Positions 6,001 to 60,201 of a stretch of 64,000 nt of DNA are shown piece after piece. Every line of letters begins with the position of its first letter. Positions within the stretch are counted from its first letter, which is position 1. The position numbers and the translations under genes were made by a program. Source of the stretch: Leptogorgia sarmentosa (Eukaryota); contig OZ210884.1 in the NCBI GenBank assembly GCA_964658305.1, positions 124,001 through 188,000 on the forward strand, in the 5' to 3' direction. The notes below the pieces were generated by a model, which was not told where the DNA came from, made no database searches, and saw nothing but the letters and a program-made list of their open reading frames with translations.

Positions 6001-9000
6001 TCAAAATCATTGTTATCAATGTAAACACGCTCTGCAACATCGCTAGAGTGTGATTTTTGGCATTTGAAGAGTTTTAAAATTTCAAACTTTAGTCAAATTC
6101 ATGATCATTTTGGACACATTTTCCAACTTGGTATGAACAAATCAAAATCATTATTATCAATGTAAACACACTCTGCAGCATCACTGGAGGGAGATTTTTA
6201 GCATCTGAAGAGTTTTAAAATTTCAAACATTAGTCAAAATCATGATCATTTTCGACACATTTTCCAACTTGGTATGAACAAATCAAAATCATTATTATCA
6301 ATGTAAACACAATCTGCAACATCGCTAGAGTGTGATTTTTTGCATTTGAAGAGTTTTAAAATTTCAAACATTAGTCAAATTCATGATCATTTTTGGCACA
6401 TTTTCCAACTTGGTATGAACAAATCAAAATCATTATTATCAATGTAAACACACTCTGCAGCATCACTGGAGGGAGATTTTCAGCATCTGAAGAGTTTTAA
6501 AATTTCAAACATTAGTCAAAATCATGATCATTTTCGACACATTTTCCAACTTGGTATGAACAAATCAAAATCATTATAATCAATGTAAACACACTCTGCA
6601 ACATCGCTACAGTGTGATTTTTTGCATTTGAAGAGTTTTAAAATTTCAAACTTTAGTCAAATTCATGATCATTTTTGACACATTTTCCAACTTGGTATGA
6701 ACAAATCAAAATCATTATTATCAATGTAAACACACTCTGCAGCATCACTGGAGGGAGATTTTTAGCATCTGAAGAGTTCTAAAATTTCAAACATTAGTCA
6801 AAATCATGATCATTTTCGACACATTTTCCAACTTGGTATGGACAAATCAAAATCATTATTATCAATGTAAACACACTCTGCAACATCGCTAGAGTGTGAT
6901 TTTTTGCATTTGAAGAGTTTTAAAATTTCAAACTTTAGTCAAAATCATGATCATTTTCGACACATTTTCCAACTTCGTACGAACAAATCAAAATCATTGT
7001 TATCAATGTAAACACGCTCTGCAACATCGCTAGAGTGTGATTTTTGGCATTTGAAGAGTTTTAAAATTTCAAACTTTAGTCAAATTCATGATCATTTTTG
7101 ACACATTTTCCAACTTGGTATGAACAAATCAAAATCATTATTATCAATGTAAACACACTCTGCAGCATCACTGGAGGGAGATTTTGTGCATCTGAAGAGT
7201 TTTAAAATTTCAAACATTAGTCAAAATCATGATCATTTTCGACACATTTTCCAACTTGGTATGAACACATCAAAATCATTATTATCAATGTAAACACACT
7301 CTGCAACATCGCTAGAGTGTGATTTTTTGCATTTGAAGAGTTTTAAAATTTCAAACTTTAGTCAAAATCATGATCATTTTCGACACATTTTCCAACTACG
7401 TACGAACAAATCAAAATCATTGTTATCAATGTAAACACGCTCTGCAACATCGCTAGAGTGTGATTTTTGGCATTTGAAGAGTTTTAAAATTTCAAACTTT
7501 AGTCAAATTCATGATCATTTTTGACACATTTTCCAACTTGGTATGAACAAATCAAAATCATTATTATCAATGTAAACACACTCTGCAGCATCACTGGAGG
7601 GAGATTTTTAGCATCTGAAGAGTTTTAAAATTTCAAACATTAGTCAAATTCATGATCATTTTTGACACATTTTCCAACTTGGTATGAACAAATCAAAATC
7701 ATTATTATCAATGTAAACACACTCTGCAACATCGCTAGAGTGTGATTTTTTGCATTTGAAGAGTTTTAAAATTTCAAACATTAGTCAAAATCATGATCAT
7801 TTTCGACACATTTTCCAACTTGGTATGAACAAATCAAAATCATTATTATCAATGTAAACACACTCTGCAGCATCACTGGAGGGAGATTTTTAGCATCTGA
7901 AGAGTTTTAAAATTTCAAACATTAGTCAAAATCATGATCATTTTCGACACATTTTCCAACTTCGTACGAACAAATCAAAATCATTGTTATCAATGTAAAC
8001 ACGCTCTGCAACATCGCTAGAGTGTGATTTTTTGCATTTGAAGAGTTTTAAAATTTCAAACTTTAGTCAAATTCATGATCATTTTTGACACATTTTCCAA
8101 CTTGGTATGAACAAATCAAAATCATTATTATCACTGTAAACACAATCTGCAACATCGCTAGAGTGTGATTTTTTGCATTTGAAGAGTTTTAAAATTTCAA
8201 ATTTTAGTCAAATTCATGATCATTTTTGACACATTTTCCAACTTGGTATGAACAAATCAAAATCATTATTATCAATGTAAACACACTCTGCAGCATCACT
8301 GGAGGGAGATTTTTAGCATCTGAAGAGTTTTAAAATTTCAAACATTAGTCAAAATCATGATCATTTTCGACACATTTTCCAACTTGGTATGAACAAATCA
8401 AAATCATTATTATCAATGTAAACACACTCTGCAACATCGCTAGAGTGTGATTTTTTGCATTTGAAAAGTTTTAAAATTTCAAACTTTAGTCAAAATCATG
8501 ATCATTTTCGACACATTTTCCAACTTCGTACGAACAAATCAAAATCATTGTTATCAATGTAAACACGCTCTGCAACATCGCTAGAGTGTGATTTTTGGCA
8601 TTTGAAGAGTTTTAAAATTTCAAACTTTAGTCAAATTCATGATCATTTTTGACACATTTTCCAACTTGGTATAAACAAATCAAAATCATTATTATCAATG
8701 TAAACACACTCTGCAACATCGCTAGAGTGTGATTTTTTGCATTTGAAGAGTTTTAAAATTTCAAACTTTAGTCAAATTCATGATCATTTTTGACACATTT
8801 TCCAACTTGGTATGAACAAATCAAAGTCATTATTATCAATGTAAACACACTCTGCAGCATCACTGGAGGGAGATTTTTAGCATCTGAAGCGTTTTAAAAT
8901 TTCAAACATTAGTCAAAATCATGATCATTTTCGACACATTTTCCAACTTCGTACGAACAAATCAAAATCATTGTTATCAATGTAAACACGCTCTGCAACA

Positions 9001-12000
9001 TCGCTAGAGTGTGATTTTTGGCATTTGAAGAGTTTTAAAATTTCAAACTTTAGTCAAATTCATGATCATTTTTGACACATTTTCCAACTTGGTATGAACA
9101 AATCAAAATCATTATTATCAATGTAAACACATTCTGCAACATCGCTAGAGTGTGATTTTTTGCATTTGAAGAGTTTTAAAATTTCAAATTTAGTCAAATT
9201 CATGATCATTTTTCACACATTTTCCAACTTGGTATGAACAAATCAAAATCGTTATTATCAATGTAAACACACTCTGCAACATCGCTAGAGTGTGATTTTT
9301 TGCATTTGAAGAGTTTTAAAATTTCAAACATTAGTCAAAATCATGATCATTTTCGACACATTTTCCAACTTGGTATGAACAAATCAAAATCATTATTATC
9401 AATGTAAACACACTCTGCAACATCGCTAGAGTGTGATTTTTTGCATTTGAAGAGTTTTAAAATTTCAAACATTAGTCAAAATCATGATCATTTTCGACAC
9501 ATTTTCCAACTTGGTATGAACAAATCAAAATCATTATTATCAATGTAAACGCACTCTGCAGCATCACTGGAGGGAGATTTTTAGCATCTGAAGAGTTTTA
9601 AAATTTCAAACATTAGTCAAAATCATGATCATTTTCGACACATTTTCCAACTTGGTATGAACAAATCAAAATCATTATTATCAATGTAAACACACTCTGC
9701 AACATCGCTAGAGTGTGATTTTTTGCATTTGAAGAGTTTTAAAATTTGCAAACTTTAGTCAAATTCATGATCATTTTTGACACATTTTCCAACTTGGTAT
9801 GAACAAATCAAAGTCATTATTATCAATGTAAACACACTCTGCAGCATCACTGGAGGGAGATTTTTAGCATCTGAAGAGTTTTAAAATTTCAAATATTAGT
9901 CAAAATCATGATCATTTTCGACACATTTTCCAACTTGGTATGAACAAATCAAAATCATTATTATCAATGTAAACACACTCTGCAACATCGCTAGAGTGTG
10001 ATTTTTTGCATTTGAAGAGTTTTAAAATTTCAAACATTAGTCAAAATCATGATCATTTTCGACACATTTTCCAACTTGGTATGAACAAATCAAAATCATT
10101 ATTATCAATGTCAACACACTCTGCAGCATCACTGGAGGGAGATTTTTAGCATCTGAAGAGTTTTAAAATTTCAAACCTTTGTCAAAATCATGATCATTTT
10201 CGACACATTTTCCAACTTGGTATGAACAAATCAAAATCATTATTATCAATGTAAACACACTCTGCAACATCGCTAGAGTGTGATTTTTTGCATTTGAAGA
10301 GTTTTAAAATTTCAAACATTAGTCAAAATCATGATCATTTTCGACACATTTTCCAACTTGGTATGAACAAATCAAAATCATTATTATCAATGTAAACACA
10401 CTCTGCAGCATCACTGGAGGGAGATTTTTAGCATCTGAAGAGTTTTAAAATTTCAAACATTAGTCAAGATCATGATCATTTTCGACACATTTTCCAACTT
10501 GGTATGAACAAATCAAAATCATTATTATCAATGTAAACACACTCTGCAGCATCACTGGAGGGAGATTTTTAGCATCTGAAGAGTTTTAAAATTTCAAACA
10601 TTAGTCAAAATCATGATCATTTTCGACACATTTTCCAACTTCGTACGAACAAATCAAAATCATTGTTATCAATGTAAACACGCTCTGCAACATCGCTAGA
10701 GTGTGATTTTTGGCATTTGAAGAGTTTTAAAATTTCAAACTTTAGTCAAAATCATGATCATTTTTGACACATTTTCCAACTTGGTATGAACAAATCAAAA
10801 TCATTATTATCAATGTAAACACACTCTGCAACATCGCTTAAGTGTGTTTTTTTGCATTTGAAGAGTTTTAAAATTTCAAACTTTAGTCAAATTCATGATC
10901 ATTTTTGACACATTTTCCAACTTGGTATGAACAAATCAAAATCATTATTATCAATGTAAACACACTCTGCAGCATCACTGGAGGGAGATTTTTAGCATCT
11001 GAAGAGTTTTAAAATTTCAAACATTAATCAAAATCATGATCATTTTCGACACATTTTCCAACTTGGTATGAACAAATCAAAATCATTATTATCAATGTAA
11101 ACACACTCTGCAACATCGCTAGAGTGTGATTTTTTGCATTTGAAGAGTTTTAAAATTTCAAACTTTAGTCAAAATCATGATCCTTTTCGACACATTTTCC
11201 AACTTCGTACGAACAAATCAAAATCATTGTTATGAATGTAAACACGCTCTGCAACATCGCTAGAGTGTGATTTTTGGCATTTGAAGAGTTTTAAAATTTC
11301 AAACTTTAGTCAAATTCATGATCATTTTTGACACATTTTCCAACTTGGTATGAACAAATCAAAATCATTGTTATCAATGTAAAAACGCTCTGCAAGATCG
11401 CTAGAGTGTGATTTTTGGCATTTGAAGAGTTTTAAAATTTCAAACTTTAGTCAAATTCATGATCATTTTTGACACATTTTCCAACTTCGTACGAACAAAT
11501 CAAAATCATTGTTATCAATGTAAACACGCTCTGCAACATCGCTAGAGTGTGATTTTTGGCATTTGAAGAGTTTTAAAATTTCAAACTTTAGTCAAATTCA
11601 TGATCATTTTTGACACATTTTCCAACTTGGTATGAACAAATCAAAATCATTATTATCAATGTAAACACACTCTGCAACATCGCTAGAGTGTGTTTTTTTG
11701 CATTTGAAGAGTTTTAAAATTTCAAACTTTAGTCAAATTCATGATCATTTTTGACACATTTTCCAACTTGGTATGAACAAATCAAAATCATTATTATCAA
11801 TGTAAACACACTCTGCAGCATCACTGGAGGGAGATTTTTAGCATCTGAAGAGTTTTAAAATTTCAAACATTAATCAAAATCATGATCATTTTCGACACAT
11901 TTTCCAACTTGGTATGAACAAATCAAAATCATTATTATCAATGTAAACACACTCTGCAACATCGCTAGAGTGTGATTTTTTGCTTTTGAAGAGTTTTAAA

Positions 12001-15000
12001 ATTTCAAACTTTAGTCAAAATCATGATCCTTTTCGACACATTTTCCAACTTCGTACGAACAAATCAAAATCATTGTTATGAATGTAAACACGCTCTGCAA
12101 CATCGCTAGAGTGTGATTTTTGGCATTTGAAGAGTTTTAAAATTTCAAACTTTAGTCAAATTCATGATCATTTTTGACACATTTTCCAACTTGGTATGAA
12201 CAAATCAAAATCATTGTTATCAATGTAAACACGCTCTGCAACATCGCTAGAGTGTGATTTTTTTGCATTTGAAGAGTTTTAAAATTTCAAACTTTAGTCA
12301 AATTCATGATCATTTTTGACACATTTTCCAACTTCGTACGAACAAATCAAAATCATTGTTATCAATGTAAACACGCTCTGCAACATCGCTAGAGTGTGAT
12401 TTTTGGCATTTGAAGAGTTTTAAAATTTCAAACTTTAGTCAAATTCATGATCATTTTTGACACATTTTCCAACTTGGTATGAACAAATCAAAATCATTAT
12501 TATCAATGTAAACACACTCTTGCAGCATCACTGGAGGGAGATTTTTAGCATCTGAAGAGTTTTAAAATTTCAAACATTAGTCAAATTCATGATCATTTTT
12601 GACACATTTCCCAAATTGGTATGAACAAATCAAAATCATTATTATCAATGTAAACACACTCTGCAACATCGCTAGAGTGTGATTTTTTGCATTTGAAGAG
12701 TTTTAAAATTTCAAACTTTAGTCAAATTCATGATCATTTTTGACACATTTTCCAACTTGGTATGAACAAATCAAAATCATTATTATCAATGTAAACACAC
12801 TCTCCAACATCGCTAGAGTGTGATTTTTTGCATTTGAAGAGTTTTAAAATTTCAAACTCTAGTCAAATTCATGATCATTTTGACACATTTTCCAACTTGG
12901 TATGAACAAATCAAAATCATTATTATCAATGTAAACACAATCTGCAACATCGCTAGAGTGTGATTTTTACATTTGAAGAGTTTTAAAATTTCAAACTTTA
13001 GTCAAATTCATGATCATTTTTGACAGATTTTCCAACTTGGTATGAACAAATCAAAATCATTATTATCAATTCAAACACACTCTGCAGCATCACTGGAGGG
13101 AGATTTTTAGCATCTGAAGAGTTTTAAAATTTCAAACATTAGTCAAAATCATGATCATTTTTGACACATTTTCCAACTTGGTATGAACAAATCAAAATCA
13201 TTATTATCAATGTAAACACACTCTGCAGCTTCACTGGAGGGAGATTTTTAGCATCTGAAGAGTTTTAAAATTTCAAACATTAGTCAAATTCATGATCATT
13301 TTTGACACATTTCCCAAATTGGTATGAACAAATCAAAATCATTATTATCAATGTAAACACACTCTGCAACATCGCTAGAGTGTGATTTTTTGCATTTGAA
13401 GAGTTTTAAAATTTCAAACTTTAGTCAAATTCATGATCATTTTTGACACATTTTCCAACTTGGTATGAACAAATCAAAATCATTATTATCAATGTAAACA
13501 CACTCTCCAACATCGCTAGAGTGTGATTTTTTGCATTTGAAGAGTTTTAAAATTTCAAACTCTAGTCAAATTCATGATCATTTTGACACATTTTCCAACT
13601 TGGTATGAACAAATCAAAATCATTATTATCAATGTAAACACAATCTGCAACATCGCTAGAGTGTGATTTTTACATTTGAAGAGTTTTAAAATTTCAAACT
13701 TTAGTCAAATTCATGATCATTTTTGACAGATTTTCCAACTTGGTATGAACAAATCAAAATCATTATTATCAATTCAAACACACTCTGCAGCATCACTGGA
13801 GGGAGATTTTTAGCATCTGAAGAGTTTTAAAATTTCAAACATTAGTCAAATTCATGATCATTTTTGACACATTTTCCAACTTGGTATGAACAAATCAAAA
13901 TCATTATTATCAATGTAAACACACTCTGCAACATCGCTAGAGTGTGATTTTTTGCATTTGAAGAGTTTTAAAATTTCAAACTTTAGTCAAATTCATGATC
14001 ATTTTTGACACATTTTCCAACTTGGTATGAACAAATAAAAATCATTATTATCAATGTAAACACACTCTCCAACATCGCTAGAGTGTGATTTTTTGCATTT
14101 GAAGAGTTTTAAAATTTCAAACTTTAGTCAAATTCATGATCATTTTTGACACATTTTCCAACTTGGTATGAACAAATCAAAATCATTATTATCAATGTAA
14201 ACACAATCTGCAACATCGCTAGAGTGTGATTTTTTGCATTTGAAGAGTTTTAAAATTTCAAACTTTAGTCAAATTCATGATCATTTTTGACACATTTTCC
14301 AACTTGTTATGAACAAATCAAAATCATTATTATCAATGTAAACACACTCTGCAGCATCACTGGAGGGAGATTTTTAGCATCTGAAGAGTTTTAAAATTTC
14401 AAACATTAGTCAAAATCATGATCATTTTCGATACATTTTCCAACTTGGTATGAACAAATCAAAATCATTATTATCAATGTAAACACAATCTGCAACATCG
14501 CTAGAGTGTGATTTTTTGCATTTGAAGAGTTTTAAAATTTCAAACTTTAGTCAAAATCATGATCATTTTCGACACATTTTCCAACTTCGTACGAACAAAT
14601 CAAAATCATTGTTATCAATGTAAAGACGCTCTGCAACATCGCTAGAGTGTGATTTTTGGCATTTGAAGAGTTTTAAAATTTCAAACATTAGTCAAAATCA
14701 TGATCATTTTGGACACATTTTCCAACTTGGTATGAACAAATCAAAATCATTATTATCAATGTAAACACACTCTGCAACATCGCTAGAGTGTGATTTTTTG
14801 CATTTGAAAAGTTTTAAAATTTCAAACTTTAGTCAAATTCATGATCATTTTCGACACATTTTCCAACTTCGTACGAACAAATCAAAATCATTGTTATCAA
14901 TGTAAACACGCTCTGCAACATCGCTAGAGTGTGATTTTTGGCATTTGAAGAGTTTTAAAATTTCAAACTTTAGTCAAATTCATAATCATTTTTGACACAT

Positions 15001-15485
15001 TTTCCGACTTGGTATGAACAAATCAAAATCATTATTATCAATGTAAACACACTCTGCAACATCGCTAGAGTGTGATTTTTTGCATTTGAAGAGTTTTAAA
15101 ATTTCAAACTTTAGTCAAATTCATGATCATTTTTGACACATTTTCCAACTTGGTATGAACAAATCAAAGTCATTATTATCAATGTAAACACACTCTGCAG
15201 CATCACTGGAGGGAGATTTTTAGCATCTGAAGCGTTTTAAAATTTCAAACATTAGTCAAAATCATGATCATTTTCGACACATTTTCCAACTTCGTACGAA
15301 CAAATCAAAATCATTGTTATCAATGAAACACGCTCTGCAACATCGCTAGAGTGTGATTTTTGGCATTTGAAGAGTTTTAAAATTTCAAACTTTAGTCAAA
15401 TTCATGATCATTTTTGACACATTTTCCAACTTGGTATGAACAAATCAAAATCATTATTATCAATGTAAACACACTCTGCAACGTC
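1..15485. repeat. 141-bp AT-rich satellite array, block 1 (about 110 head-to-tail monomers)
   Basis: The motif AAAC(A/T/G)TTAGT recurs at 11, 152, 293 and onward, giving a period of 141. Consensus: TTAAAATTTCAAACATTAGTCAAAATCATGATCATTTTCGACACATTTTCCAACTTGGTATGAACAAATCAAAATCATTATTATCAATGTAAACACACTCTGCAACATCGCTAGAGTGTGATTTTTTGCATTTGAAGAGTT. The array runs off the window start. Confidence 0.99.
15480..15485 (+). repeat. Left copy of 6-bp target-site duplication (AACGTC)
   Basis: Satellite ...CTCTGC-AACGTC abuts AGTAGT. The right copy is AACATC (one mismatch). The uninterrupted paralogue at 9138-9143 has a single AACATC. Confidence 0.85.
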
Positions 15486-15519
15486 AGTAGTAATATAGGT
15501 ACCGATCGAGCCGGATTTT

Positions 15520-15800
15520 TGAGGTGGTGCATGAGGTGGTGCGAGGTGGTGCGAGGTGGTGCGAGGCTGCGTGAGGTGGTGCGAGGCTGCGTGAGGCTGC
15601 GTGAGGTGGTGCGAGGCTGCGTGAGGCTGCGTGAGGTGGTGCGAGGCTGCGTGAGGCTGCGTGAGGTGGTGCGAGGTGGTGCGAGGCTGCGTGAGGTGGT
15701 GCGAGGCTGCGTGAGGCTGCGTGAGGTGGTGCGAGGCTGCGTGAGGCTGCGTGAGGTGGTGCGAGGCTGCATGAGGTGGTGCACGGCGCGTGAGGCTGCG
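15520..15800 (+). repeat. GC-rich 10-bp tandem repeat (GTGAGGTGGT / GCGAGGCTGC / GTGAGGCTGC; 30-bp higher order), left arm
   Basis: GAGG recurs every 10 bp over about 28 units. Confidence 0.97.
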
Positions 15801-16210
15801 CAGGGGTGTGCAGGGGTGCGCATGCGTATTGAGGCTATGAACTCATTAGAATATCGTGTTCTGATTGGTTGAATTTTACAATTCGGATACGTAACGGGAT
15901 ACGTGTCTTGTATTTTCATTCTGGATACTGGTTGACGTTTTACATCGTGTTCTGATAGTTTGAACAGCGTTACGTTACGCTATAGGCGCGCTCAGATTCA
16001 TCTTCTTCTACGGAATCTTTTTAGCTGACGTAAAATATAGACAACACTTCCTATATTTTCAATACGAAATCTCTCTGTCTTCAGTTGCTATCCTCGTTGT
16101 TAAGTGCAAGTCATTAAGCGGTCATTAAGACTAAATTTGCATACTCGAAGTAATTAAAATTGTACATTACATCGCGCGGGCGTTTGCAGGAACACAAATT
16201 TCATTTTAAA
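15801..16210. promoter_or_regulatory. Unique ~410-bp segment with clustered transcription-factor-like motifs (mirrored at 19397-19806)
   Basis: TGCGCATGCGTA (NRF1-like) 15817-15828; CTGATTGGTT (reverse CCAAT box) 15861-15870; TGACGT (CRE half-site) near 15933 and 16026; GTCATTAAG twice at 16110-16129; octamer ATTTGCAT 16135-16142; ATCGTGTTCTGAT repeated at 15853 and 15944. These are motif matches only and function is untested. Confidence 0.4.
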
Positions 16211-17830
16211 TTCGATATCATTGGGATATCATTCGATATCATTGGGATATCATTTCGATATCATTGGGATATCATTCGATATCATTTGGGATATCATTCG
16301 ATATCATTGGGATATCATTCGATATCATTGGGATATCATTCGATATCATTGGGATATCATTCGATATCATTTCGATATCATTCGATATCATTTCGATATC
16401 ATTGGGATATCATTCGATATCATTTCGATATCATTGGGATATCATTCGATATCATTTCGATATCATTGGGATATCATTCGATATCATTTCGATATCATTT
16501 CGATATCATTGGGATATCATTCGATATCATTGGGATATCATTCGATATCATTTGGGATATCATTCGATATCATTGGGATATCATTCGATATCATTGGGAT
16601 ATCATTCGATATCATTTCGATATCATTCGATATCATTTCGATATCATTTCGATATCATTCGATATCATTTCGATATCATTGGGATATCATTCGATATCAT
16701 TTCGATATCATTCGATATCATTTCGATATCATTGGGATATCATTCGATATCATTTCGATATCATTGGGATATCATTCGATATCATTTCGATATCATTTCG
16801 ATATCATTGGGATATCATTCGATATCATTGGGATATCATTCGATATCATTTGGGATATCATTCGATATCATTGGGATATCATTCGATATCATTGGGATAT
16901 CATTCGATATCATTTCGATATCATTCGATATCATTTCGATATCATTGGGATATCATTCGATATCATTTCGATATCATTTCGATATCATTCGATATCATTT
17001 CGATATCATTGGGATATCATTCGATATCATTCGATATCATTTCGATATCATTGGGATATCATTCGATATCATTTGGGATATCATTCGATATCATTTCGAT
17101 ATCATTGGGATATCATTCGATATCATTTCGATATCATTGGGATATCATTCGATATCATTTCGATATCATTCGATATCATTTCGATATCATTGGGATATCA
17201 TTCGATATCATTTCGATATCATTTCGATATCATTCGATATCATTTCGATATCATTGGGATATCATTCGATATCATTTCGATATCATTCGATATCATTTCG
17301 ATATCATTGGGATATCATTCGATATCATTTGGGATATCATTCGATATCATTCGATATCATTTCGATATCATTGGGATATCATTCGATATCATTTCGATAT
17401 CATTTCGATATCATTCGATATCATTTCGATATCATTGGGATATCATTCGATATCATTTCGATATCATTCGATATCATTTCGATATCATTGGGATATCATT
17501 CGATATCATTTCGATATCATTGGGATATCATTCGATATCATTTGGGATATCATTCGATATCATTCGATATCATTTCGATATCATTGGGATATCATTCGAT
17601 ATCATTTCGATATCATTTCGATATCATTCGATATCATTTCGATATCATTGGGATATCATTCGATATCATTTCGATATCATTCGATATCATTTCGATATCA
17701 TTGGGATATCATTCGATATCATTTCGATATCATTGGGATATCATTCGATATCATTTCGATATCATTTCGATATCATTGGGATATCATTCGATATCATTGG
17801 GATATCATTTGGGATATCATTCGATATCAT
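16211..17830 (+). repeat. GATATC-core minisatellite (10/11/11/12-bp units), left arm, roughly 150 units
   Basis: Built from GATATCATTC, GATATCATTTC, GATATCATTGG and GATATCATTTGG. Confidence 0.98.
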
Positions 17831-17858
17831 CATTTGCATGGTCGACTATTCAATTGAA
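17831..17858. other. 28-bp central spacer of the palindromic element
   Basis: CATTTGCATGGTCGACTATTCAATTGAA is the only part of the element without an inverted partner. Repeat orientation flips across it. Confidence 0.9.
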
Positions 17859-19396
17859 CCCAAATGATATCGAAATGATATCGAATGATATCCCAATGAT
17901 ATCGAATGATATCCCAATGATATCGAAATGATATCGAAATGATATCGAATGATATCCCAATGATATCGAAATGATATCGAATGATATCGAATGATATCCC
18001 AATGATATCGAATGATATCGAAATGATATCGAAATGATATCGAATGATATCCCAATGATATCGAATGATATCCCAATGATATCGAAATGATATCGAAATG
18101 ATATCGAATGATATCCCAAATGATATCGAATGATATCCCAATGATATCGAAATGATATCGAATGATATCGAAATGATATCGAATGATATCCCAATGATAT
18201 CGAAATGATATCGAATGATATCGAAATGATATCGAAATGATATCGAATGATATCCCAATGATATCGAAATGATATCGAATGATATCGAATGATATCCCAA
18301 ATGATATCGAATGATATCCCAATGATATCGAAATGATATCGAATGATATCGAATGATATCCCAATGATATCGAAATGATATCGAATGATATCGAAATGAT
18401 ATCGAAATGATATCGAATGATATCCCAATGATATCGAAATGATATCGAATGATATCGAAATGATATCGAATGATATCCCAATGATATCGAATGATATCCC
18501 AATGATATCGAATGATATCCCAAATGATATCGAATGATATCCCAATGATATCGAATGATATCCCAATGATATCGAAATGATATCGAAATGATATCGAATG
18601 ATATCCCAATGATATCGAAATGATATCGAATGATATCCCAATGATATCGAATTGATATCGAATGATATCGAAATGATATCGAATGATATCCCAATGATAT
18701 TGAAATGATATCGAATGATATCGAAATGATATCGAAATGATATCGAATGATATCGAAATGATATCGAATGATATCCCAATGATATCGAATGATATCCCAA
18801 TGATATCGAATGATATCCCAAATGATATCGAATGATATCCCAATGATATCGAATGATATCCCAATGATATCGAAATGATATCGAAATGATATCGAATGAT
18901 ATCCCAATGATATCGAAATGATATCGAATGATATCCCAATGATATCGAAATGATATCGAATGATATCCCAATGATATCGAAATGATATCGAATGATATCC
19001 CAATGATATCGAAATGATATCGAATGATATCCCAATGATATCGAAATGATATCGAATGATATCGAAATGATATCGAATGATATCCCAATGATATCGAATG
19101 ATATCCCAATGATATCGAATGATATCCCAATGATATCGAAATGATATCGAAATGATATCGAATGATATCCCAATGATATCGAAATGATATCGAATGATAT
19201 CCCAATGATATCGAAATGATATCGAATGATATCGAAATGATATCGAATGATATCCCAATGATATCGAATGATATCCCAATGATATCGAATGATATCCCAA
19301 TGATATCGAATGATATCCCAAATGATATCGAATGATATCCCAATGATATCGAAATGATATCCCAATGATATCGAATGATATCCCAATGATATCGAA
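17859..19396 (-). repeat. GATATC-core minisatellite, right arm (inverted), roughly 145 units
   Basis: Units GAATGATATC, GAAATGATATC, CCAATGATATC and CCAAATGATATC. About 80 bp shorter than the left array. Confidence 0.98.
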
Positions 19397-19806
19397 TTTA
19401 AAATGAAATTTGTGTTCCTGCAAACGCCCGCGCGATGTAATGTACAATTTTAATTACTTCGAGTATGCAAATTTAGTCTTAATGACCGCTTAATGACTTG
19501 CACTTAACAACGAGGATAGCAACTGAAGACAGAGAGATTTCGTATTGAAAATATAGGAAGTGTTGTCTATATTTTACGTCAGCTAAAAAGATTCCGTAGA
19601 AGAAGATGAATCTGAGCGCGCCTATAGCGTAACGTAACGCTGTTCAAACTATCAGAACACGATGTAAAACGTCAACCAGTATCCAGAATGAAAATACAAG
19701 ACACGTATCCCGTTACGTATCCGAATTGTAAAATTCAACCAATCAGAACACGATATTCTAATGAGTTCATAGCCTCAATACGCATGCGCACCCCTGCACA
19801 CCCCTG

Positions 19807-20087
19807 CGCAGCCTCACGCGCCGTGCACCACCTCACGCAGCCTCGCACCACCTCACGCAGCCTCATGCAGCCTCGCACCACCTCACGCAGCCTCACGCAG
19901 CCTCGCACCACCTCACGCAGCCTCGCACCACCTCGCACCACCTCACGCAGCCTCACGCAGCCTCGCACCACCTCACGCAGCCTCACGCAGCCTCGCACCA
20001 CCTCACGCAGCCTCACGCAGCCTCGCACCACCTCACGCAGCCTCGCACCACCTCGCACCACCTCGCACCACCTCATGCACCACCTCA
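19807..20087 (-). repeat. GC-rich 10-bp tandem repeat, right arm (CCTCACGCAG / CCTCGCACCA)
   Basis: Reverse complement of 15520-15800 with two substitutions. Confidence 0.97.
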
Positions 20088-20121
20088 AAAATCCGGCTCG
20101 ATCGGTACCTATATTACTACT

Positions 20122-20127
20122 AACATC
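20122..20127 (+). repeat. Right copy of 6-bp target-site duplication (AACATC)
   Basis: ACTACT-AACATC-GCTAGAGTGTG. The satellite resumes in phase. Confidence 0.85.
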
Positions 20128-23100
20128 GCTAGAGTGTGATTTTTTGCATTTGAAGAGTTTTAAAATTTCAAATTTAGTCAAATTCATGATCATTTTTCAC
20201 ACATTTTCCAACTTGGTATGAACAAATCAAAATCGTTATTATCAATGTAAACACACTCTGCAACATCGCTAGAGTGTGATTTTTTGCATTTGAAGAGTTT
20301 TAAAATTTCAAACATTAGTCAAAATCATGATCATTTTGGACACATTTTCCAACTTGGTATGAACAAATCAAAATCATTATTATCAATGTAAACACACTCT
20401 GCAACATCGCTAGAGTGTGATTTTTTGCATTTGAAAAGTTTTAAAATTTCAAACTTTAGTCAAATTCATGATCATTTTCGACACATTTTCCAACTTCGTA
20501 CGAACAAATCAAAATCATTGTTATCAATGTAAACACGCTCTGCAACATCGCTAGAGTGTGATTTTTGGCATTTGAAGAGTTTTAAAATTTCAAACTTTAG
20601 TCAAATTCATAATCATTTTTGACACATTTTCCAACTTGGTATGAACAAATCAAAATCATTATTATCAATGTAAACACACTCTGCAACATCGCTAGAGTGT
20701 GATTTTTTGCATTTGAAGAGTTTTAAAATTTCAAACTTTAGTCAAATTCATGATCATTTTTGACACATTTTCCAACTTGGTATGAACAAATCAAAGTCAT
20801 TATTATCAATGTAAACACACTCTGCAGCATCACTGGAGGGAGATTTTTAGCATCTGAAGCGTTTTAAAATTTCAAATTTAGTCAAATTCATGATCATTTT
20901 TCACACATTTTCCAACTTGGTATGAACAAATCAAAATCGTTATTATCAATGTAAACACACTCTGCAACATCGCTAGAGTGTGATTTTTTGCATTTGAAGA
21001 GTTTTAAAATTTCAAACATTAGTCAAAATCATGATCATTTTGGACACATTTTCCAACTTGGTATGAACAAATCAAAATCATTATTATCAATGTAAACACA
21101 CTCTGCAACATCGCTAGAGTGTGATTTTTTGCATTTGAAGAGTTTTAAAATTTCAAACATTAGTCAAAATCATGATCATTTTCGACACATTTTCCTACTT
21201 GGTATGAACAAATCAAAATCATTATTATCAATGTAAACGCACTCTGCAGCATCACTGGAGGGAGATTTTTAGCATCTGAAGAGTTTTAAAATTTCAAACA
21301 TTAGTCAAAATCATGATCATTTTCGACACATTTTCCAACTTGGTATGAACAAATCAAAATCATTATTATCAATGTAAACACAATCTGCAACATCGCTAGA
21401 GTGTGATTTTTTGCATTTGAAGAGTTTTAAAATTCCAAACTTTAGTCAAAATCATGATCATTTTCGACACATTTTCCAACTTCGTACGAACAAATCAAAA
21501 TCATTGTTATCAATGTAAAGACGCTCTGCAACATCGCTAGAGTGTGATTTTTGGCATTTGAAGAGTTTTAAAATTTCAAACATTAGTCAAAATCATGATC
21601 ATTTTGGACACATTTTCCAACTTGGTATGAACAAATCAAAATCATTATTATCAATGTAAACACACTCTGCAACATCGCTAGAGTGTGATTTTTTGCATTT
21701 GAAAAGTTTTCAAATTTCAAACTTTAGTCAAAATCATGATCATTTTCGACACATTTTCCAACTTCGTACGAACAAATCAAAATCATTGTTATCAATGTAA
21801 ACACGCTCTGCAACATCGCTAGAGTGTGATTTTTGGCATTTGAAGAGTTTTAAAATTTCAAACTTTTGTCAAATTCATAATCATTTTTGACACATTTTCC
21901 AACTTGGTATGAACAAATCAAAATCATTATTATCAATGTAAACACACTCTGCAACATCGCTAGAGTGTGATTTTTTGCATTTGAAGAGTTTTAAAATTTC
22001 AAACTTTAGTCAAATTCATGATCATTTTTGACACATTTTCCAACTTAGTATGAACAAATCAAAGTCATTATTATCAATGTAAACACACTCTGCAGCATCA
22101 CTGGAGGGAGATTTTTAGCATCTGAAGCGTTTTAAAATTTCAAACATTAGTCAAAATCATGATCATTTTCGACACATTTTCCAACTTCGTACGAACAAAT
22201 CAAAATCATTGTTATCAATGTAAACACGCTCTGCAACATCGCTAGAGTGTGATTTTTTGCATTTGAAGAGTTTTAAAATTTCAAACATTAGTCAAAATCA
22301 TGATCATTTTCGACACATTTTCCAACTTGGTATGAACAAATCAAAATCATTATTATCAATGTAAACACACTCTGCAACATCGCTAGAGTGTGATTTTTTG
22401 CATTTGAAGAGTTTTAAAATTTCAAACATTAGTCAAAATCATGATCATTTTGGACACATTTTCCAACTTGGTATGAACAAATCAAAATCATTATTATCAA
22501 TGTAAACACACTCTGCAACATCGCTAGAGTGTGATTTTTTGCATTTGAAAAGTTTTAAAATTTCAAACTTTAGTCAAAATCATGATCATTTTCGACACAT
22601 TTTCCAACTTCGTACGAACAAATCAAAATCATTGTTATCAATGTAAACACGCTCTGCAACATCGCTAGAGTGTGATTTTTGGCATTTGAAGAGTTTTAAA
22701 ATTTCAAACTTTTGTCAAATTCATAATCATTTTTGACACATTTTCCAACTTGGTATGAACAAATCAAAATCATTATTATCAATGTAAACACACCCTGCAA
22801 CATCGCTAGAGTGTGATTTTTTGCATTTGAAGAGTTTTAAAATTTCAAACTTTAGTCAAATTCATGATCATTTTTGACACATTTTCCAACTTGGTATGAA
22901 CAAATCAAAGTCATTATTATCAATGTAAACACACTCTGCAGCATCACTGGAGGGAGATTTTTAGCATCTGAAGCGTTTTAAAATTTCAAACATTAGTCAA
23001 AATCATGATCATTTTCGACACATTTTCCAACTTCGTACGAACAAATCAAAATCATTGTTATCAATGTAAACACGCTCTGCAACATCGCTAGAGTGTGATT

Positions 23101-26100
23101 TTTTGCATTTGAAGAGTTTTAAAATTTCAAACATTAGTCAAAATCATGATCATTTTCGACACATTTTCCAACTTGGTATGAACAAATCAAAATCATTATT
23201 ATCAATGTAAACACACTCTGCAACATCGCTAGAGTGTGATTTTTTGCATTTGAAGAGTTTTAAAATTTCAAACATTAGTCAAAATCATGATCATTTTCGA
23301 CACATTTTCCAACTTGGTATGAACAAATCAAAATCATTATTATCAATGTAAACGCACTCTGCAGCATCACTGTAGGGAGATTTTTAGCATCTGAAGAGTT
23401 TTAAAATTTCAAACATTAGTCAAAATCATGATCATTTTCGACACATTTTCCAACTTGGTATGAACAAATCAAAATCATTATTATCAATGTAAACACACTC
23501 TGCAACATCGCTAGAGTGTGATTTTTTGCATTTGAAGAGTTTTAAAATTTGCAAACTTTAGTCAAATTCATGATCATTTTTGACACATTTTCCAACTTGG
23601 TATGAACAAATCAAAGTCATTATTATCAATGTAAACACACTCTGCAGCATCACTGGAGGGAGATTTTTAGCATCTGAAGAGTTTTAAAATTTCAAACATT
23701 AGTCAAAATCATGATCATTTTCGACACATTTTCCAACTTCGTACGAACAAATCAAAATCATTGTTATCAATGTAAACACGCTCTGCAACATCGCTAGAGT
23801 GTGATTTTTGGCATTTGAAGAGTTTTAAAATTTCAAACTTTAGTCAAATTCATGATCATTTTTGACACATTTTCCAACTTGGTATGAACAAATCAAAATC
23901 ATTATTATCAATGTAAACACACTCTGCAACATCGCTAGAGTGTGATTTTTTGCATTTGAAGAGTTTTAAAATTTCAAACATTAGTCAAAATCATGATCAT
24001 TTTCGACACATTTTCCAACTTGGTATGAACAAATCAAAATCATTATTATCAATGTAAACACACTCTGCAGCATCACTGGAGGGAGATTTTTAGCATCTGA
24101 AGAATTTTAAAATTTCAAACATTAGTCAAAATCATGATCATTTTCGACACATTTTTCAACTTGGTATGAACAAATCAAAATCATTATTATCAATGTAAAC
24201 ACACTCTGCAACATCGCTAGAGTGTGATTTTTTGCATTTGAAGAGTTTTAAAATTTCAAACATTAGTCAAAATCATGATCATTTTCGACACATTTTCCAA
24301 CTTGGTATGAACAAATCAAAATCATTATTATCAATGTAAACACACTCTGCAACATCGCTAGAGTGTGATTTTTTGCATTTGAAGAGTTTTAAAATTTGCA
24401 AACTTTAGTCAAATTCATGATCATTTTTGACACATTTTCCAACTTGGTATGAACAAATCAAAATCATTATTATCAATGTAAACACACTCTGCAACATCGC
24501 TAGAGTGTGATTTTTTGCATTTGAAGAGTTTTAAAATTTCAAACATTAGTCAAAATCATGATCATTTTCGACACATTTTCCAACTTGGTATGAACAAATC
24601 AAAATCATTATTATCAATGTAAACACACTCTGCAGCATCACTGCAGGGAGATTTTTAGCATCTGAAGAATTTTAAAATTTCAAACATTAGTCAAAATCAT
24701 GATCATTTTCGACACATTTTCCAACTTGGTATGAACAAATCAAAATCATTATTATCAATGTAAACACACTCTGCAACATCGCTAGAGTGTGATTTTTTGC
24801 ATTTGAAGAGTTTTAAAATTTCAAACATTAGTCAAAATCATGATCATTTTCGACACATTTTCCAACTTGGTATGAACAAATCAAAATCATTATTATCAAT
24901 GTAAACACACTCTGCAACATCGCTAGAGTGTGATTTTTTGCATTTGAAGAGTTTTAAAATTTGCAAACTTTAGTCAAATTCATGATCATTTTTGACACAT
25001 TTTCCAACTTGGTATGAACAAATCAAAATCATTGTTATCAATGTAAAGACGCTCGGCAACATCGCTAGAGTGTGATATTTGGCATTTGAAGAGTTTTAAA
25101 ATTTCAAACTTTAGTCAAATTCATGATCATTTTTGACACATTTTCCAACTTGGTATGAACAAATCAAAATCATTATTATCAATGTAAACACACTCTGCAA
25201 CATCGCTAGAGTGTGATTTTTTGCATTTGAAGAGTTTTAAAATTTCAAACATTAGTCAAAATCATGATCATTTTCGACACATTTTCCAACTTGGTATGAA
25301 CAAATCAAAATCATTATTATCAATGTAAACAAACTCTGCAACATCGCTAGAGTGTGATTTTTGGCATTTGAAGAGTTTTAAAATTTCAAACATTAGTCAA
25401 AATCATGATCATTTTCGACACATTTTCCAACTTGGTATGAACAAATCAAAATCATTATTATCAATGTAAACGCACTCTGCAGCATCACTGGAGGGAGATT
25501 TTTAGCATCTGAAGAGTTTTAAAATTTCAAACATTAGTCAAAATCATGATCATTTTCGACACATTTTCCAACTTGGTATGAACAAATCAAAATCATTATT
25601 ATCAATGTAAACACACTCTGCAACATCGCTAGAGTGTGATTTTTTGCATTTGAAGAGTTTTAAAATTTGCAAACTTTAGTCAAATTCATGATCATTTTTG
25701 ACACATTTTCCAACTTGGTATGAACAAATCAAAGTCATTATTATCAATGTAAACACACTCTGCAGCATCACTGGAGGGAGATTTTTAGCATCTGAAGAGT
25801 TTTAAAATTTCAAACATTAGTCAAAATCATGATCATTTTCGACACATTTTCCAACTTCGTACGAACAAATCAAAATCATTGTTATCAATGTAAACACGCT
25901 CTGCAACATCGCTAGAGTGTGATTTTTGGCATTTGAAGAGTTTTAAAATTTCAAACTTTAGTCAAATTCATGATCATTTTTGACACATTTTCCAACTTGG
26001 TATGAACAAATCAAAATCATTATTATCAATGTAAACACACTCTGCAGCATCACTGGAGGGAGATTTTTTGCATTTGAAGAGTTTTAAAATTTCAAACATT

Positions 26101-29100
26101 AGTCAAAATCATGATCATTTTCGACACATTTTCCAACTTGGTATGAACAAATCAAAATCATTATTATCAATGTAAACACACTCTGCAACATCGCTAGAGT
26201 GTGATTTTTGGCATTTGAAGAATTTTAAAATTTCAAACATTAGTCAAAATCATGATCATTTTCGACACATTTTCCAACTTGGTATGAACAAATCAAAATC
26301 ATTATTATCAATGTAAACACACTCTGCAACATCGCTAGAGTGTGATTTTTTGCATTTGAAGAGTTTTAAAATTTCAAACATTAGTCAAAATCATGATCAT
26401 TTTCGACACATTTTCCAACTTGGTATGAACAAATCAAAATCATTATTATCAATGTAAACACACTCTGCAACATCGCTAGAGTGTGATTTTTTGCATTTGA
26501 AGAGTTTTAAAATTTCAAACATTAGTCAAAATCATGATCATTTTCGACACATTTTCCAACTTGGTATGAACAAATCAAAATCATTATTATCAATGTAAAC
26601 GCACTCTGCAGCATCACTGGAGGGAGATTTTTAGCATCTGAAGAGTTTTAAAATTTCAAACATTAGTCAAAATCATGATCATTTTCGACACATTTTCCAA
26701 CTTGGTATGAACAAATCAAAATCATTATTATCAATGTAAACACAATCTGCAACATCGCTAGAGTGTGATTTTTTGCATTTGAAGAGTTTTAAAATTCCAA
26801 ACTTTAGTCAAAATCATGATCATTTTCGACACATTTTCCAACTTCGTACGAACAAATCAAAATCATTATTATCAATGTAAACACACTCTGCAACATCGCT
26901 AGAGTGTGATTTTTGGCATTTGAAGAGTTTTAAAATTTCAAACATTAGTCAAAATCATGATCATTTTGGACACATTTTCCAACTTGGTATGAACAAATCA
27001 AAATCATTATTATCAATGTAAACACACTCTGCAGCATCACTGGAGGGAGATTTTTAGCATCTGAAGAGTTTTAAAATTTCAAACATTAGTCAAAATCATG
27101 ATCATTTTCGACACATTTTCCAACTTCGTACGAACAAATCAAAATCTTTGTTATCAATGTAAACACGCTCTGCAACATCGCTAGAGTGTGATTTTTGGCA
27201 TTTGAAGAGTTTTAAAATTTCAAACTTTTGTCAAATTCATAATCATTTTTGACACATTTTCCAACTTGGTATGAACAAATCAAAATCATTATTATCAATG
27301 TAAACACACTCTGCAACATCGCTAGAGTGTGATTTTTTGCATTTGAAGAGTTTTAAAATTTCAAACTTTAGTCAAATTCATGATCATTTTTGACACATTT
27401 TCCAACTTGGTATGAACAAATGAAAGTCATTATTATCAATGTAAACACACTCTGCAGCATCACTGGAGGGAGATTTTTAGCATCTGAAGCGTTTTAAAAT
27501 TTCAAACATTAGTCAAAATTATGATCATTTTCGACACATTTTCCAACTTCGTACGAACAAATCAAAATCATTGTTATCAATGTAAACACGCTCTGCAACA
27601 TCGCTAGAGTGTGATTTTTTGCATTTGAAGAGTTTTAAAATTTCAAACATTAGTCAAAATCATGATCATTTTCGACACATTTTCCAACTTGGTATGAACA
27701 AATCAAAATCATTATTATCAATGTAAACACACTCTGCAACATCGCTAGAGTGTGATTTTTTGCATTTGAAGAGTTTTAAAATTTCAAACATTAGTCAAAA
27801 TCATGATCATTTTCGACACATTTTCCAACTTGGTATGAACAAATCAAAATCATTATTATCAATGTAAACGCACTCTGCAGCATCACTGTAGGGAGATTTT
27901 TAGCATCTGAAGAGTTTTAAAATTTCAAACATTAGTCAAAATCATGATCATTTTCGACACATTTTCCAACTTGGTATGAACAAATCAAAATCATTATTAT
28001 CAATGTAAACACACTCTGCAACATCGCTAGAGTGTGATTTTTTGCATTTGAAGAGTTTTAAAATTTGCAAACTTTAGTCAAATTCATGATCATTTTTGAC
28101 ACATTTTCCAACTTGGTATGAACAAATCAAAGTCATTATTATCAATGTAAACACACTCTGCAGCATCACTGGAGGGAGATTTTTAGCATCTGAAGAGTTT
28201 TAAAATTTCAAACATTAGTCAAAATCATGATCATTTTCGACACATTTTCCAACTTCGTACGAACAAATCAAAATCATTGTTATCAATGTAAACACGCTCT
28301 GCAACATCGCTAGAGTGTGATTTTTGGCATTTGAAGAGTTTTAAAATTTCAAACTTTAGTCAAATTCATGATCATTTTTGACACATTTTCCAACTTGGTA
28401 TGAACAAATCAAAATCATTATTATCAATGTAAACACACTCTGCAACATCGCTAGAGTGTGATTTTTTGCATTTGAAGAGTTTGAAAATTTCAAACATTAG
28501 TCAAAATCATGATCATTTTCGACACATTTTCCAACTTGGTATGAACAAATCAAAATCATTATTATCAATGTAAACACACTCTGCAGCATCACTGGAGGGA
28601 GATTTTTAGCATCTGAAGAATTTTAAAATTTCAAACATTAGTCAAAATCATGATCATTTTCGACACATTTTCCAACTTGGTATGAACAAATCAAAATCAT
28701 TATTATCAATGTAAACACACTCTGCAACATCGCTAGAGTGTGATTTTTTGCATTTGAAGAGTTTTAAAATTTCAAACATTAGTCAAAATCATGATCATTT
28801 TCGACACATTTTCCAACTTGGTATGAACAAATCAAAATCATTATTATCAATGTAAACACACTCTGCAACATCGCTAGAGTGTGATTTTTTGCATTTGAAG
28901 AGTTTTAAAATTTCAAACATTAGTCAAAATCATGATCATTTTCGACACATTTTCCAACTTGGTATGAACAAATCAAAATCATTATTATCAATGTAAACAC
29001 ACTCTGCAGCATCACTGGAGGGAGATTTTTAGCATCTGAAGAGTTTTAAAATTTCAAACATTAGTCAAAATCATGATCATTTTCGACACATTTTCCAACT

Positions 29101-32100
29101 TCGTACGAACAAATCAAAATCATTGTTATCAATGTAAACACGCTCTGCAACATCGCTAGAGTGTGATTTTTGGCATTTGAACAGTTTTAAAATTTCAAAC
29201 TTTAGTCAAATTCATGATCATTTTTGACACATTTTCCAACTTGGTATGAACAAATCAAAATCATTATTATCAATGTAAACACACTCTGCAACATCGCTAG
29301 AGTGTGATTTTTTGCATTTGAAGAGTTTTAAAATTTCAAACATTAGTCAAAATCATGATCATTTTCGACACATTTTCCAACTTGGTATGAACAAATCAAA
29401 ATCATTATTATCAATGTAAACACACTCTGCAGCATCACTGGAGGGAGATTTTTAGCATCTGAAGAGTTTTAAAATTTCAAACATTAGTCAAAATCATGAT
29501 CATTTTCGACACATTTTCCAACTTGGTATGAACAAATCAAAATCATTATTATCAATGTAAACACACTCTGCAACATCGCTAGAGTGTGATTTTTTGCATT
29601 TGAAGAGTTTTAAAATTTCAAACATTAGTCAAAATCATGATCATTTTCGACACATTTTCCAACTTGGTATGAACAAATCAAAATCATTGTTATCAATGTA
29701 TAGACGCTCGGCAACATCGCTAGAGTGTGATATTTGGCATTTGAAGAGTTTTAAAATTTCAAACTTTAGTCAAATTCATGATCATTTTTGACACATTTTC
29801 CAACTTGGTATGAACAAATCAAAATCATTATTATCAATGTAAACACACTCTGCAACATCGCTAGAGTGTGATTTTTTGCATTTGAAGAGTTTTAAAATTT
29901 CAAATTTAGTCAAATTCATGATCATTTTTCACACATTTTCCAACTTGGTATGAACAAATCAAAATCGTTATTATCAATGTAAACACACTCTGCAACATCG
30001 CTAGAGTGTGATTTTTTGCATTTGAAGAGTTTTAAAATTTCAAACATTAGTCAAAATCATGATCATTTTCGACACATTTTCCAACTTGGTATGAACAAAT
30101 CAAAATCATTATTATCAATGTAAACAAACTCTGCAACATCGCTAGAGTGTGATTTTTTGCATTTGAAGAGTTTTAAAATTTCAAACATTAGTCAAAATCA
30201 TGATCATTTTCGACACATTTTCCAACTTGGTATGAACAAATCAAAATCATTATTATCAATGTAAACGCACTCTGCAGCATCACTGGAGGGAGATTTTTAG
30301 CATCTGAAGAGTTTTAAAATTTCAAACATTAGTCAAAATCATGATCATTTTCGACACATTTTCCAACTTGGTATGAACAAATCAAAATCATTATTATCAA
30401 TGTAAACACACTCTGCAACATCGCTAGAGTGTGATTTTTTGCATTTGAAGAGTTTTAAAATTTGCAAACTTTAGTCAAATTCATGATCATTTTTGACACA
30501 TTTTCCAACTTGGTATGAACAAATCAAAGTCATTATTATCAATGTAAACACACTCTGCAGCATCACTGGAGGGAGATTTTTAGCATCTGAAGAGTTTTAA
30601 AATTTCAAACATTAGTCAAAATCATGATCATTTTCGACACATTTTCCAACTTCGTACGAACAAATCAAAATCATTGTTATCAATGTAAACACGCTCTGCA
30701 ACATCGCTAGAGTGTGATTTTTGGCATTTGAAGAGTTTCAAAATTTCAAACTTTAGTCAAATTCATGATCATTTTTGACACATTTTCCAACTTGGTATGA
30801 ACAAATCAAAATCATTATTATCAATGTAAACACACTCTGCAACATCGCTAGAGTGTGATTTTTTGCATTTGAAGAGTTTTAAAATTTCAAAAATTAGTCA
30901 AAATCATGATCATTTTCGACACATTTTCCAACTTGGTATGAACAAATCAAAATCATTATTATCAATGTAAACACACTCTGCAGCATCACTGGAGGGAGAT
31001 TTTTAGCATCTGAAGAATTTTAAAATTTCAAACATTAGTCAAAATCATGATCATTTTCGACACATTTTCCAACTTGGTATGAACAAATCAAAATCATTAT
31101 TATCAATGTAAACACACTCTGCAACATCGCTAGAGTGTGATTTTTTGCATTTGAAGAGTTTTAAAATTTCAAACATTAGTCAAAATCATGATCATTTTCG
31201 ACACATTTTCCAACTTGGTATGAACAAATCAAAATCATTATTATCAATGTAAACACACTCTGCAACATCGCTAGAGTGTGATTTTTTGCATTTGAAGAGT
31301 TTTAAAATTTCAAATTTAGTCAAATTCATGATCATTTTTCACACATTTTCCAACTTGGTATGAACAAATCAAAATCGTTATTATCAATGTAAACACACTC
31401 TGCAACATCGCTAGAGTGTGATTTTTCATTTGAAGAGTTTTAAAATTTCAAACATTAGTCAAAATCATGATCATTTTCGACACATTTTCCAACTTGGTAT
31501 GAACAGATCAAAATCATTATTATCAATGTAAACAAACTCTGCAACATCGCTAGAGTGTGATTTTTTGCATTTGAAGAGTTTTAAAATTTCAAACATTAGT
31601 CAAAATCATGATCATTTTCGACACATTTTCCAACTTGGTATGAACAAATCAAAATCATTATTATCAATGTAAACGCACTCTGCAGCATCACTGGAGGGAG
31701 ATTTTTAGCATCTGAAGAGTTTTAAAATTTCAAACATTAGTCAAAATCATGATCATTTTCGACACATTTTCCAACTTGGTATGAACAAATCAAAATCATT
31801 ATTATCAATGTAAACACACTCTGCAACATCGCTAGAGTGTGATTTTTTGCATTTGAAGAGTTTTAAAATTTGCAAACTTTAGTCAAATTCATGATCATTT
31901 TTGACACATTTTCCAACTTGGTATGAACAAATCAAAGTCATTATTATCAATGTAAACACACTCTGCAGCATCACTGGAGGGAGATTTTTAGCATCTGAAG
32001 AGTTTTAAAATTTCAAACATTAGTCAAAATCATGATCATTTTCGACACATTTTCCAACTTCGTACGAACAAATCAAAATCATTGTTATCAATGTAAACAC

Positions 32101-59100: not shown

Positions 59101-59783
59101 TGTGATTTTTGGCATTTGAAGAGTTTTAAAATTTCAAACTTTAGTCAAATTCATGATCATTTTTGACACATTTTCCAACTTGGTATGAACAAATCAAAAT
59201 CATTATTATCAATGTAAACACACTCTGCAGCATCACTGGAGGGAGATTTTTTGCATCTGAAGAGTTTTAAAATTTCAAACATTAGTCAAATTCATGATCA
59301 TTTTTGACACATTTTCCAACTTGGTATGAACAAATCAAAATCATTATTATCAATGTAAACACACTCTGCAACATCGCTAGAGTGTGATTTTTTGCATTTG
59401 AAGAGTTTTAAAATTTCAAACTTTAGTCAAATTCATGATCATTTTTGACAGATTTTCCAACTTGGTATGAACAAATCAAAATCATTATTATCAATGTAAA
59501 CACACTCTGCAGCATCACTGGAGGGAGATTTTTAGCATCTGAAGAGTTTTAAAATTTCAAACATTAGTCAAAATCATGATGATTTTCGACACATTTTCCA
59601 ACTTCGTACGAACAAATCAAAATCATTGTTATCAATGTAAACACGCTCTGCAACATCGCTAGAGTGTGATTTTTGGCATTTGAAGAGTTTTAAAATTTCA
59701 AACTTTAGTTAAATTCATGATCATTTTTGACACATTTTCCAGCTTGGTATGAACAAATCAAAATCGTTATTATCAATGTAAAC
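20122..59783. repeat. 141-bp satellite array, block 2 (about 281 monomers, same orientation)
   Basis: Same monomer and variants as block 1, with no non-satellite sequence seen. Confidence 0.99.
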
Positions 59784-60201
59784 GCGCGCTTGCGTGCGCG
59801 TGCACGAAAAACCGCGCTCTACAAAATCATTAAAATTTATCGCTTAACCCTTGGATTTCAAAGTGAAAATCGGTAGATTCTGTTGGCTAAAGATTCACTC
59901 TTTGGATATTTGGTGTCTGCTTGGTTAAAATTACTTTCCTTTGGACAATTTTGGCGAAACAATTGTTGATTCAGTCCGAATTTCCGTTTATTGAGAGGAC
60001 GGAAAATTCGTTGAAAACTCGGAGGCGCGCACAACTACGCCACAGTCTGCTGACGTCGTTTGAATGCTCAACGTTTTTTGCACACGTTATTCATATACGA
60101 ATCGCGTTTGACTCGAGCGCGTGAGCAAATACGGTCGTCTATTAGAACAATTAAAAGGATAATCAATAATCAATAAATTAATTGAAACGTACAGGATTGA
60201 A

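Follow-up and report, generated by a model that had tools for sequence, protein, structure and literature searches.

A gene-less palindromic element with Polinton-type ends in the satellite DNA of Leptogorgia sarmentosa, one of a dispersed multi-copy family

The closest described systems to the element reported here are the Polintons, also called Mavericks. In vertebrate Mavericks the commonest end motif is 5'-(AGT)2//(ACT)2-3', with (AG)3//(CT)3 as an alternative, target-site duplications (TSDs) are of 6 bp and terminal inverted repeats (TIRs) range from 46 to 1,447 bp (PMC8097293). The mechanism proposed for Polintons involves the short terminal tandem repeat, a single-stranded racket-like intermediate, synthesis by the protein-primed polymerase B (pPolB) and integration; this model of panhandle, protein-primed synthesis and integrase insertion rests mainly on bioinformatics (PMC4196379). 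We describe an element of 4,636 bp at positions 15486-20121 of a 64,000-nt stretch of L. sarmentosa DNA (contig OZ210884.1, positions 124,001 to 188,000; hereafter the window). It is a member of a multi-copy family that is dispersed at independent sites. The reading we prefer, to which we give a probability of about 0.72, is that it is one copy of a dispersed, gene-less, palindromic family and likely a non-autonomous derivative of a Polinton, with the enzymes of a helper Polinton doing the copying and the integration.

The element begins with AGTAGT and ends with ACTACT, which is exactly the commonest Maverick motif. It also resembles Polintons and Mavericks in its 6-bp duplication, its long TIRs and the panhandle predicted for its single strand (passages of PMC8097293, PMC4028283, PMC4196379 and PMC3014272). 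In contrast with these systems, it is 4.6 kb and not 12.7-24.6 kb in length, its 2.3-kb arms meet at a 28-bp spacer, and it is without pPolB, integrase, ATPase, protease and capsid genes. All of its open reading frames (ORFs) are derived from repeats. Six of them, of 497-565 aa, are read-throughs of a stop-free array of GATATC units, four shorter ones are read-throughs from a 10-bp minisatellite into the flanking satellite, and an Rfam search of the element gave 0 matches. An earlier note on this DNA had claimed that the element has no genes, and this holds in substance. Judged from its sequence, with a length of 4.6 kb and repeat-derived ORFs only, the element is not an autonomous Polinton. 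None of the listed sequencing runs that hold words of its unique body is an RNA run.

The other systems with a similar architecture are the foldback elements. These have an outer unique domain, internal tandem repeats and a short non-coding middle, and different lineages may acquire such a structure independently (PMC4079207). The element shares long TIRs, all three parts of this layout and a non-autonomous nature with Tetris, Drosophila FB and Galileo (PMC4079207). This raises the alternative that it is a non-autonomous foldback from one of the cut-and-paste DDE superfamilies (such as Mutator/Foldback or Galileo/P) that has Polinton-like ends by chance. The Tetris-type layout and its possible independent origin are in keeping with this, as is the failure to find a Polinton helper among the viral loci searched (see below). 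However, Tetris, which is assigned to Mutator, has TSDs of 8-10 bp (PMC4079207) and Ginger1 and Ginger2 have TGT ends and 4-bp TSDs (PMC2836005), in comparison with the 6-bp duplication and exact Maverick ends (motif of PMC8097293) found here. We consider a DDE foldback quite unlikely. TSDs of 6 bp are also produced by IS3EU, the ends of which are different.

The palindrome consists of a left arm of 2,345 bp and a right arm of 2,263 bp flanking the spacer. From end to centre, each arm is made up of a 35-bp terminal segment, a 265-bp minisatellite of G-rich 10-bp units, a unique stretch of ~430 bp and an array of GATATC-cored units (Table 1). Of the 4.64 kb of the element, ~3.15 kb (~68%) is taken up by the two arrays, a feature missing from the earlier note. 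In their outer ~980 bp the two arms disagree at 2 positions, and a single alignment covers 1,001 nt at 99%. The inner arrays resemble each other without being exact mirror images, units having been gained and lost between the arms. The order of units is nevertheless common to both (score 204.5, against a mean of 67 and a maximum of 87.5 in 200 shuffles). The single strand is predicted to fold with 96% of its bases in pairs; 2,178 of the pairs join arm to arm, and base 1 pairs with base 4,636. These measurements agree with the earlier note, which had described two ~2.3-kb inverted arms around a 28-bp spacer, AGTAGT...ACTACT termini (found at 15486 and 20121) and a single strand that would fold into one long hairpin. 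The predicted hairpin follows from the sequence; it is a prediction of pairing and no demonstration that the hairpin forms.

Two smaller features of the arms were seen. Both differences in the outer arms (15741 and 15771 as against 19866 and 19836) come from one variant minisatellite unit that is displaced by 30 bp, as out-of-register pairing or slippage would leave. The left array (16214-17830) has a CpG observed/expected ratio of 2.75, in comparison with 0.68 in the satellite.

Tandem repeats make up most of the element and a satellite surrounds it, a setting in which assemblies err, and no contig shown bridges it by the 31-letter standard. It could therefore be asked whether the palindrome is a sequencing or assembly artefact, produced by read fold-back or by a mis-join across the repeat array; the earlier note had named this as an outcome that would refute it. 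However, a read fold-back would leave inverted flanks and two arms of identical sequence. Here the flanks are not inverted, the satellite keeps its orientation and its 6-bp register across the element, and entire repeat units distinguish one arm from the other, so the palindrome is not a read fold-back. Additionally, the terminus, the body and the spacer all exist in public runs. The palindrome is real, and an artefact is scarcely credible.

Words of the unique body are present in 14 of the 19 listed runs, from 6 studies, and in two organisms (A and B) the share is at least 0.2. Four runs (X1, X2, X3 and X6) were examined in detail; organisms C, D and E, with shares below 0.2, were left out. 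In all four runs the terminus is joined to different flanks, and contigs break at the AGTAGT end or adjoining it. Agreement between the flanks is low, at 0.46 among X3 contigs (n=7) and 0.55 among X6 contigs (n=5), so the flanks in these two runs come from different sites. The centre of the palindrome is also found. One X3 contig spans the whole spacer (depth 1,462) and another spans its right part (depth 1,713), and there are no loose ends inside the spacer. The five terminus-plus-flank contigs of this run have depths of 84-176. In addition, three contigs from X2, X3 and X6 have the terminus at the same offset (270-315) and differ from it in 5 letters, as though organisms A and B had a single older insertion in common.

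The same terminus occurs in metagenome loci. Four loci (L001-L004) hold its first 24 bases followed by a similar T run, and beyond ~70 bases they do not align to the arm. L003 is the same insertion as L001, so the four loci represent three distinct insertions. Further in, L001, L002 and L003 contain a different array, with a 22-bp unit that has a palindromic core. By sequence, then, the arrangement of a terminus followed by a palindrome-cored array recurs in a related family. This family with the same terminus comprises L001:3574-4643 and L002:612-1454, together with L003 and L004. L001, L002 and L003 also seem to hold small nested inverted-repeat insertions.

The window is almost wholly composed of a 141-bp tandem satellite with two interruptions, the palindromic element and a long interspersed nuclear element (LINE). 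The element lies inside this satellite and both flanks have the same orientation, which confirms the claim that it is integrated in satellite DNA. The left flank stops at monomer position 6 and the right flank resumes at position 1, giving a net duplication of 6 bp. The 6-bp TSD that had been claimed therefore stands in the phase of the satellite, which shifts by exactly 6 bp, but not as a perfect pair of copies (see below). Among the 20 contigs listed with loose ends at 15482-15486, 14 end exactly at 15486 and 6 end at 1-4 bases outside it. Summed depth falls across the 15486 boundary in X3 (15,494 to 3,081), X2 (98 to 15), X6 (156 to 23) and X1 (6 to 0). Because contigs break at 15486 with a drop in depth in all four runs, the parse with a TSD is preferred over a parse without one. 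This other parse, with ends 3 bases longer, also has one mismatch and is equally parsimonious, and it is ruled out by the 14 of 20 listed breaks at 15486. The 3 extra bases are not continued in the flanks of L001, L002 and L004.

The bases next to the terminus were counted by hand in 10 flank rows, of which two represent a single insertion and two others are consensus rows. There is a T at -2 in 9 of the 10 and an A at -5 in 7; A is found at -3, -4, -6, -7 and -8 in 1, 1, 4, 1 and 2 rows, respectively. These counts point weakly to a symmetric NANNTN target of the kind that a 6-bp staggered cut predicts. The empty site was not recoverable from the higher-order structure of the satellite, as the local order of monomers is irregular.

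Several observations, including the helper searches described in the next paragraph, weigh against a Polinton derivative that has moved as a family. The target-site copies, AACGTC on the left and AACATC on the right, have 1 mismatch in 6; the G variant is rare, with 2 other monomers in the window. The arms are long, as Polinton TIRs are, but at 2.3 kb they are longer than the TIRs of intact vertebrate Mavericks (46-1,447 bp). From the roughly tenfold depth of the spacer we infer ~10 or more copies of the same centre in X3, although depth is no copy number and this run is possibly the source sample. The X3 spacer contig has 18 + 11 aligned array letters beside the spacer, fewer than the 31-letter bridging standard. 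This particular insertion does not appear with its satellite flank in any listed contig of the four runs. No second copy with both flanks was found among the contigs, which are too short for both ends and whose flank pairs are unmatched. Finally, the spacer is covered in one of the four runs; the missing cover in X1, X2 and X6, where contigs were filtered, is no proof of absence. This last point, together with the divergence of the inner arms, would suit another explanation, namely that the element is the dead remnant of a single event, in which a full Polinton that had inserted at this site lost its interior there, and that the palindrome itself never moved. The many flanks could then belong to full or decayed Polintons. 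However, spacer contigs that are ~10 times deeper than single-flank contigs and have no loose end in the spacer suggest several copies of the centre. Greater depth could also result if one insertion had been amplified in tandem along with its satellite, but there is only one copy in the window. We regard a dead remnant as rather improbable.

A helper that carries genes and has the same ends was sought in viral and prokaryote collections, which carry no bearing on the host genome. Searches of viral contigs with a 19-mer and a 16-mer of the terminus gave 0 matches. With a 15-mer, 120 of ~140 matches were examined and none extends (the best matches 11 of the next 25 bases). Prokaryote genomes gave 0 matches and then 2 matches without the AGTAGT end. 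Fifty of the 120 viral loci were taken for a pPolB protein search and 47 records were searched, of which one was positive; we take this record to be a phi29-type phage. The relatives of its pPolB are mainly proteins, one of them named as fungal, and one Polinton-type pPolB (P0157). The relatives of P0157 (50 of the best 150 aligned) led to 27 viral loci, none of which has the terminus (best 20 of 35 bases) or the arm. A 13.1-kb viral contig (L137:1-13142) has a Polinton-type polymerase match and perfect 101-bp TIRs that are unrelated to the element's ends. The claim of a non-autonomous Polinton parasite is supported in part, by the end motif, the 6-bp duplication, the many insertion sites, the multi-copy-looking centre in X3 and the predicted long hairpin. 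It lacks a helper with the same ends among the viral loci searched.

To judge from its sequence, the element most plausibly works like a Polinton, and we infer that it depends on a helper. It would keep only the cis signals of a Polinton end, and the left terminus (15486..15520) is likely the site of both integrase action and replication initiation. A displaced or excised single strand would pair over nearly its whole length and so recreate a duplex end. The protein-primed polymerase B of the helper would start at the AGT-AGT repeat and copy the element. Insertion of the duplex would be the work of the helper's retroviral-type integrase, which would cut with a 6-bp stagger and apparently prefers NANNTN targets. 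The palindrome would have arisen once and then been inherited whole, while slippage altered the GATATC arrays of each arm separately. Its origin may lie in copy-back or in the loss of all sequence between two long TIRs; both predict the same structure and we give them about even odds. Because the inner arrays differ in unit order, the second arm is not made anew from the first in each cycle. The near identity of the outer kilobase suggests recent copying or repair within the paired ends. The GATATC arrays may multiply a site to which a helper protein binds, as has been proposed for the internal repeats of Galileo (PMC4079207), or they may be neutral products of slippage.

A more elaborate reading, which we hold to be unlikely, is that the element is a minimal cis-acting satellite of a polintovirus. 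It would have been born by copy-back from one end and would replicate via its near-complete hairpin, and its ~295 palindromic sites for a helper protein would allow it to out-compete the helper. The protein bound would be a replication or packaging protein, and the element could be likened to a defective interfering genome fixed in the germ line of an animal.

Copy-back (snap-back) defective viral genomes are like the element in having two complementary copies of one end, no genes and a presumed dependence on a helper. In contrast with these genomes, the element is integrated DNA that is inherited as a family and its arms have diverged. Among Polintons, the suffix N in a family name means non-autonomous, and Repbase includes zebrafish non-autonomous N-families. 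Polinton-N1A_NV is an N-suffixed family that still encodes a major capsid protein (PMC11296320). Its presumed dependence on a helper Polinton is shared with the element, which differs in being gene-less and almost wholly palindromic. Elsewhere, Tlr1 was once viewed as a non-autonomous Polinton (passages of PMC5499653 and PMC4028283), the passages on the anole genome report no apparent non-autonomous Polinton copies (PMC3014272) and TIR-only Polinton remnants occur in Caenorhabditis elegans (PMC11414722). No gene-less palindromic Polinton appears in the passages of PMC6431247 and PMC11131425 or in the literature searched by titles and abstract openings, although a palindromic family may be described in Repbase or Dfam. 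The suggestion that this is an undescribed system was overstated, as long TIRs with internal repeats are a known foldback layout (PMC4079207) and an N-suffixed Polinton is in print (PMC11296320). Polinton ends and the foldback layout are thus already known, and what is new is likely their occurrence in a small, repeat-filled, gene-less foldback derivative of a Polinton.

A gene-less family that has still moved would narrow the cis signals needed to the ~35 terminal bases held in common and to any that the arms contain. The preferred reading, if true, suggests that polintoviruses would have parasites like defective interfering genomes. In a survey of stony corals, elements had to have hallmark genes and TIRs separated by a loop many kilobases long (PMC11131425), and gene-less elements escape gene-based surveys such as this one. 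The value of the finding is limited by the helper being unseen in the collections searched.

Table 1. Positions of the element, its parts and its surroundings in the window
Feature	Positions	Strand	Evidence
Left flank: host 141-bp satellite	1..15479	+	Satellite analysis
Left target-site copy AACGTC, satellite monomer positions 1-6	15480..15485	+	Satellite register
Left terminus: end segment of ~35 bp with the (AGT)2 motif	15486..15520	+	Contig breaks, metagenome loci; motif as in PMC8097293
Left-arm minisatellite of G-rich 10-bp units	15521..15785	+	Repeat analysis
Left-arm non-repetitive body of ~430 bp, no Rfam match	15786..16213	+	Alignment, Rfam, run word search
Left array: 152 units of GATATC and a 4-6-nt linker; pairs of units are predicted small hairpins	16214..17830	+	
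Central spacer of 28 bp; whole in one deep contig of run X3	17831..17858	.	
Right array: 143 units; order related to the left array, with unit gains and losses	17859..19393	-	
Right-arm non-repetitive body, identical to the left body	19394..19821	-	
Right-arm minisatellite of 10-bp units; as long as its left counterpart, with a 30-bp displacement of one variant unit	19822..20086	-	
Right terminus, ending ACTACT	20087..20121	-	
Right target-site copy AACATC, common satellite sequence	20122..20127	+	Satellite register
Right flank: host 141-bp satellite, orientation as in the left flank	20128..59783	+	Satellite analysis

The satellite was cut into 366 intervals, of which 305 are exactly 141 bp, and the mean divergence from the commonest monomer is 4.2%. 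There are two main monomer types, AACATC-type (n=241) and AGCATC-type (n=120), among 367 starts. They form higher-order blocks that are irregular and change along the window (1-64000).

The LINE, at 59784 to ~63655, is inserted into the same satellite as the element, with a target overlap of ~5 bp (satellite position 132 to 128). It has an (AAT)n tail and a single intact ORF of 1,040 aa (60352-63474) with endonuclease and reverse-transcriptase domains, and from this layout we take it to be CR1/L2-like. The closest relative is 91% identical across 70% of its length, and the best named relative of the LINE protein, with 41% identity, is from an octocoral.

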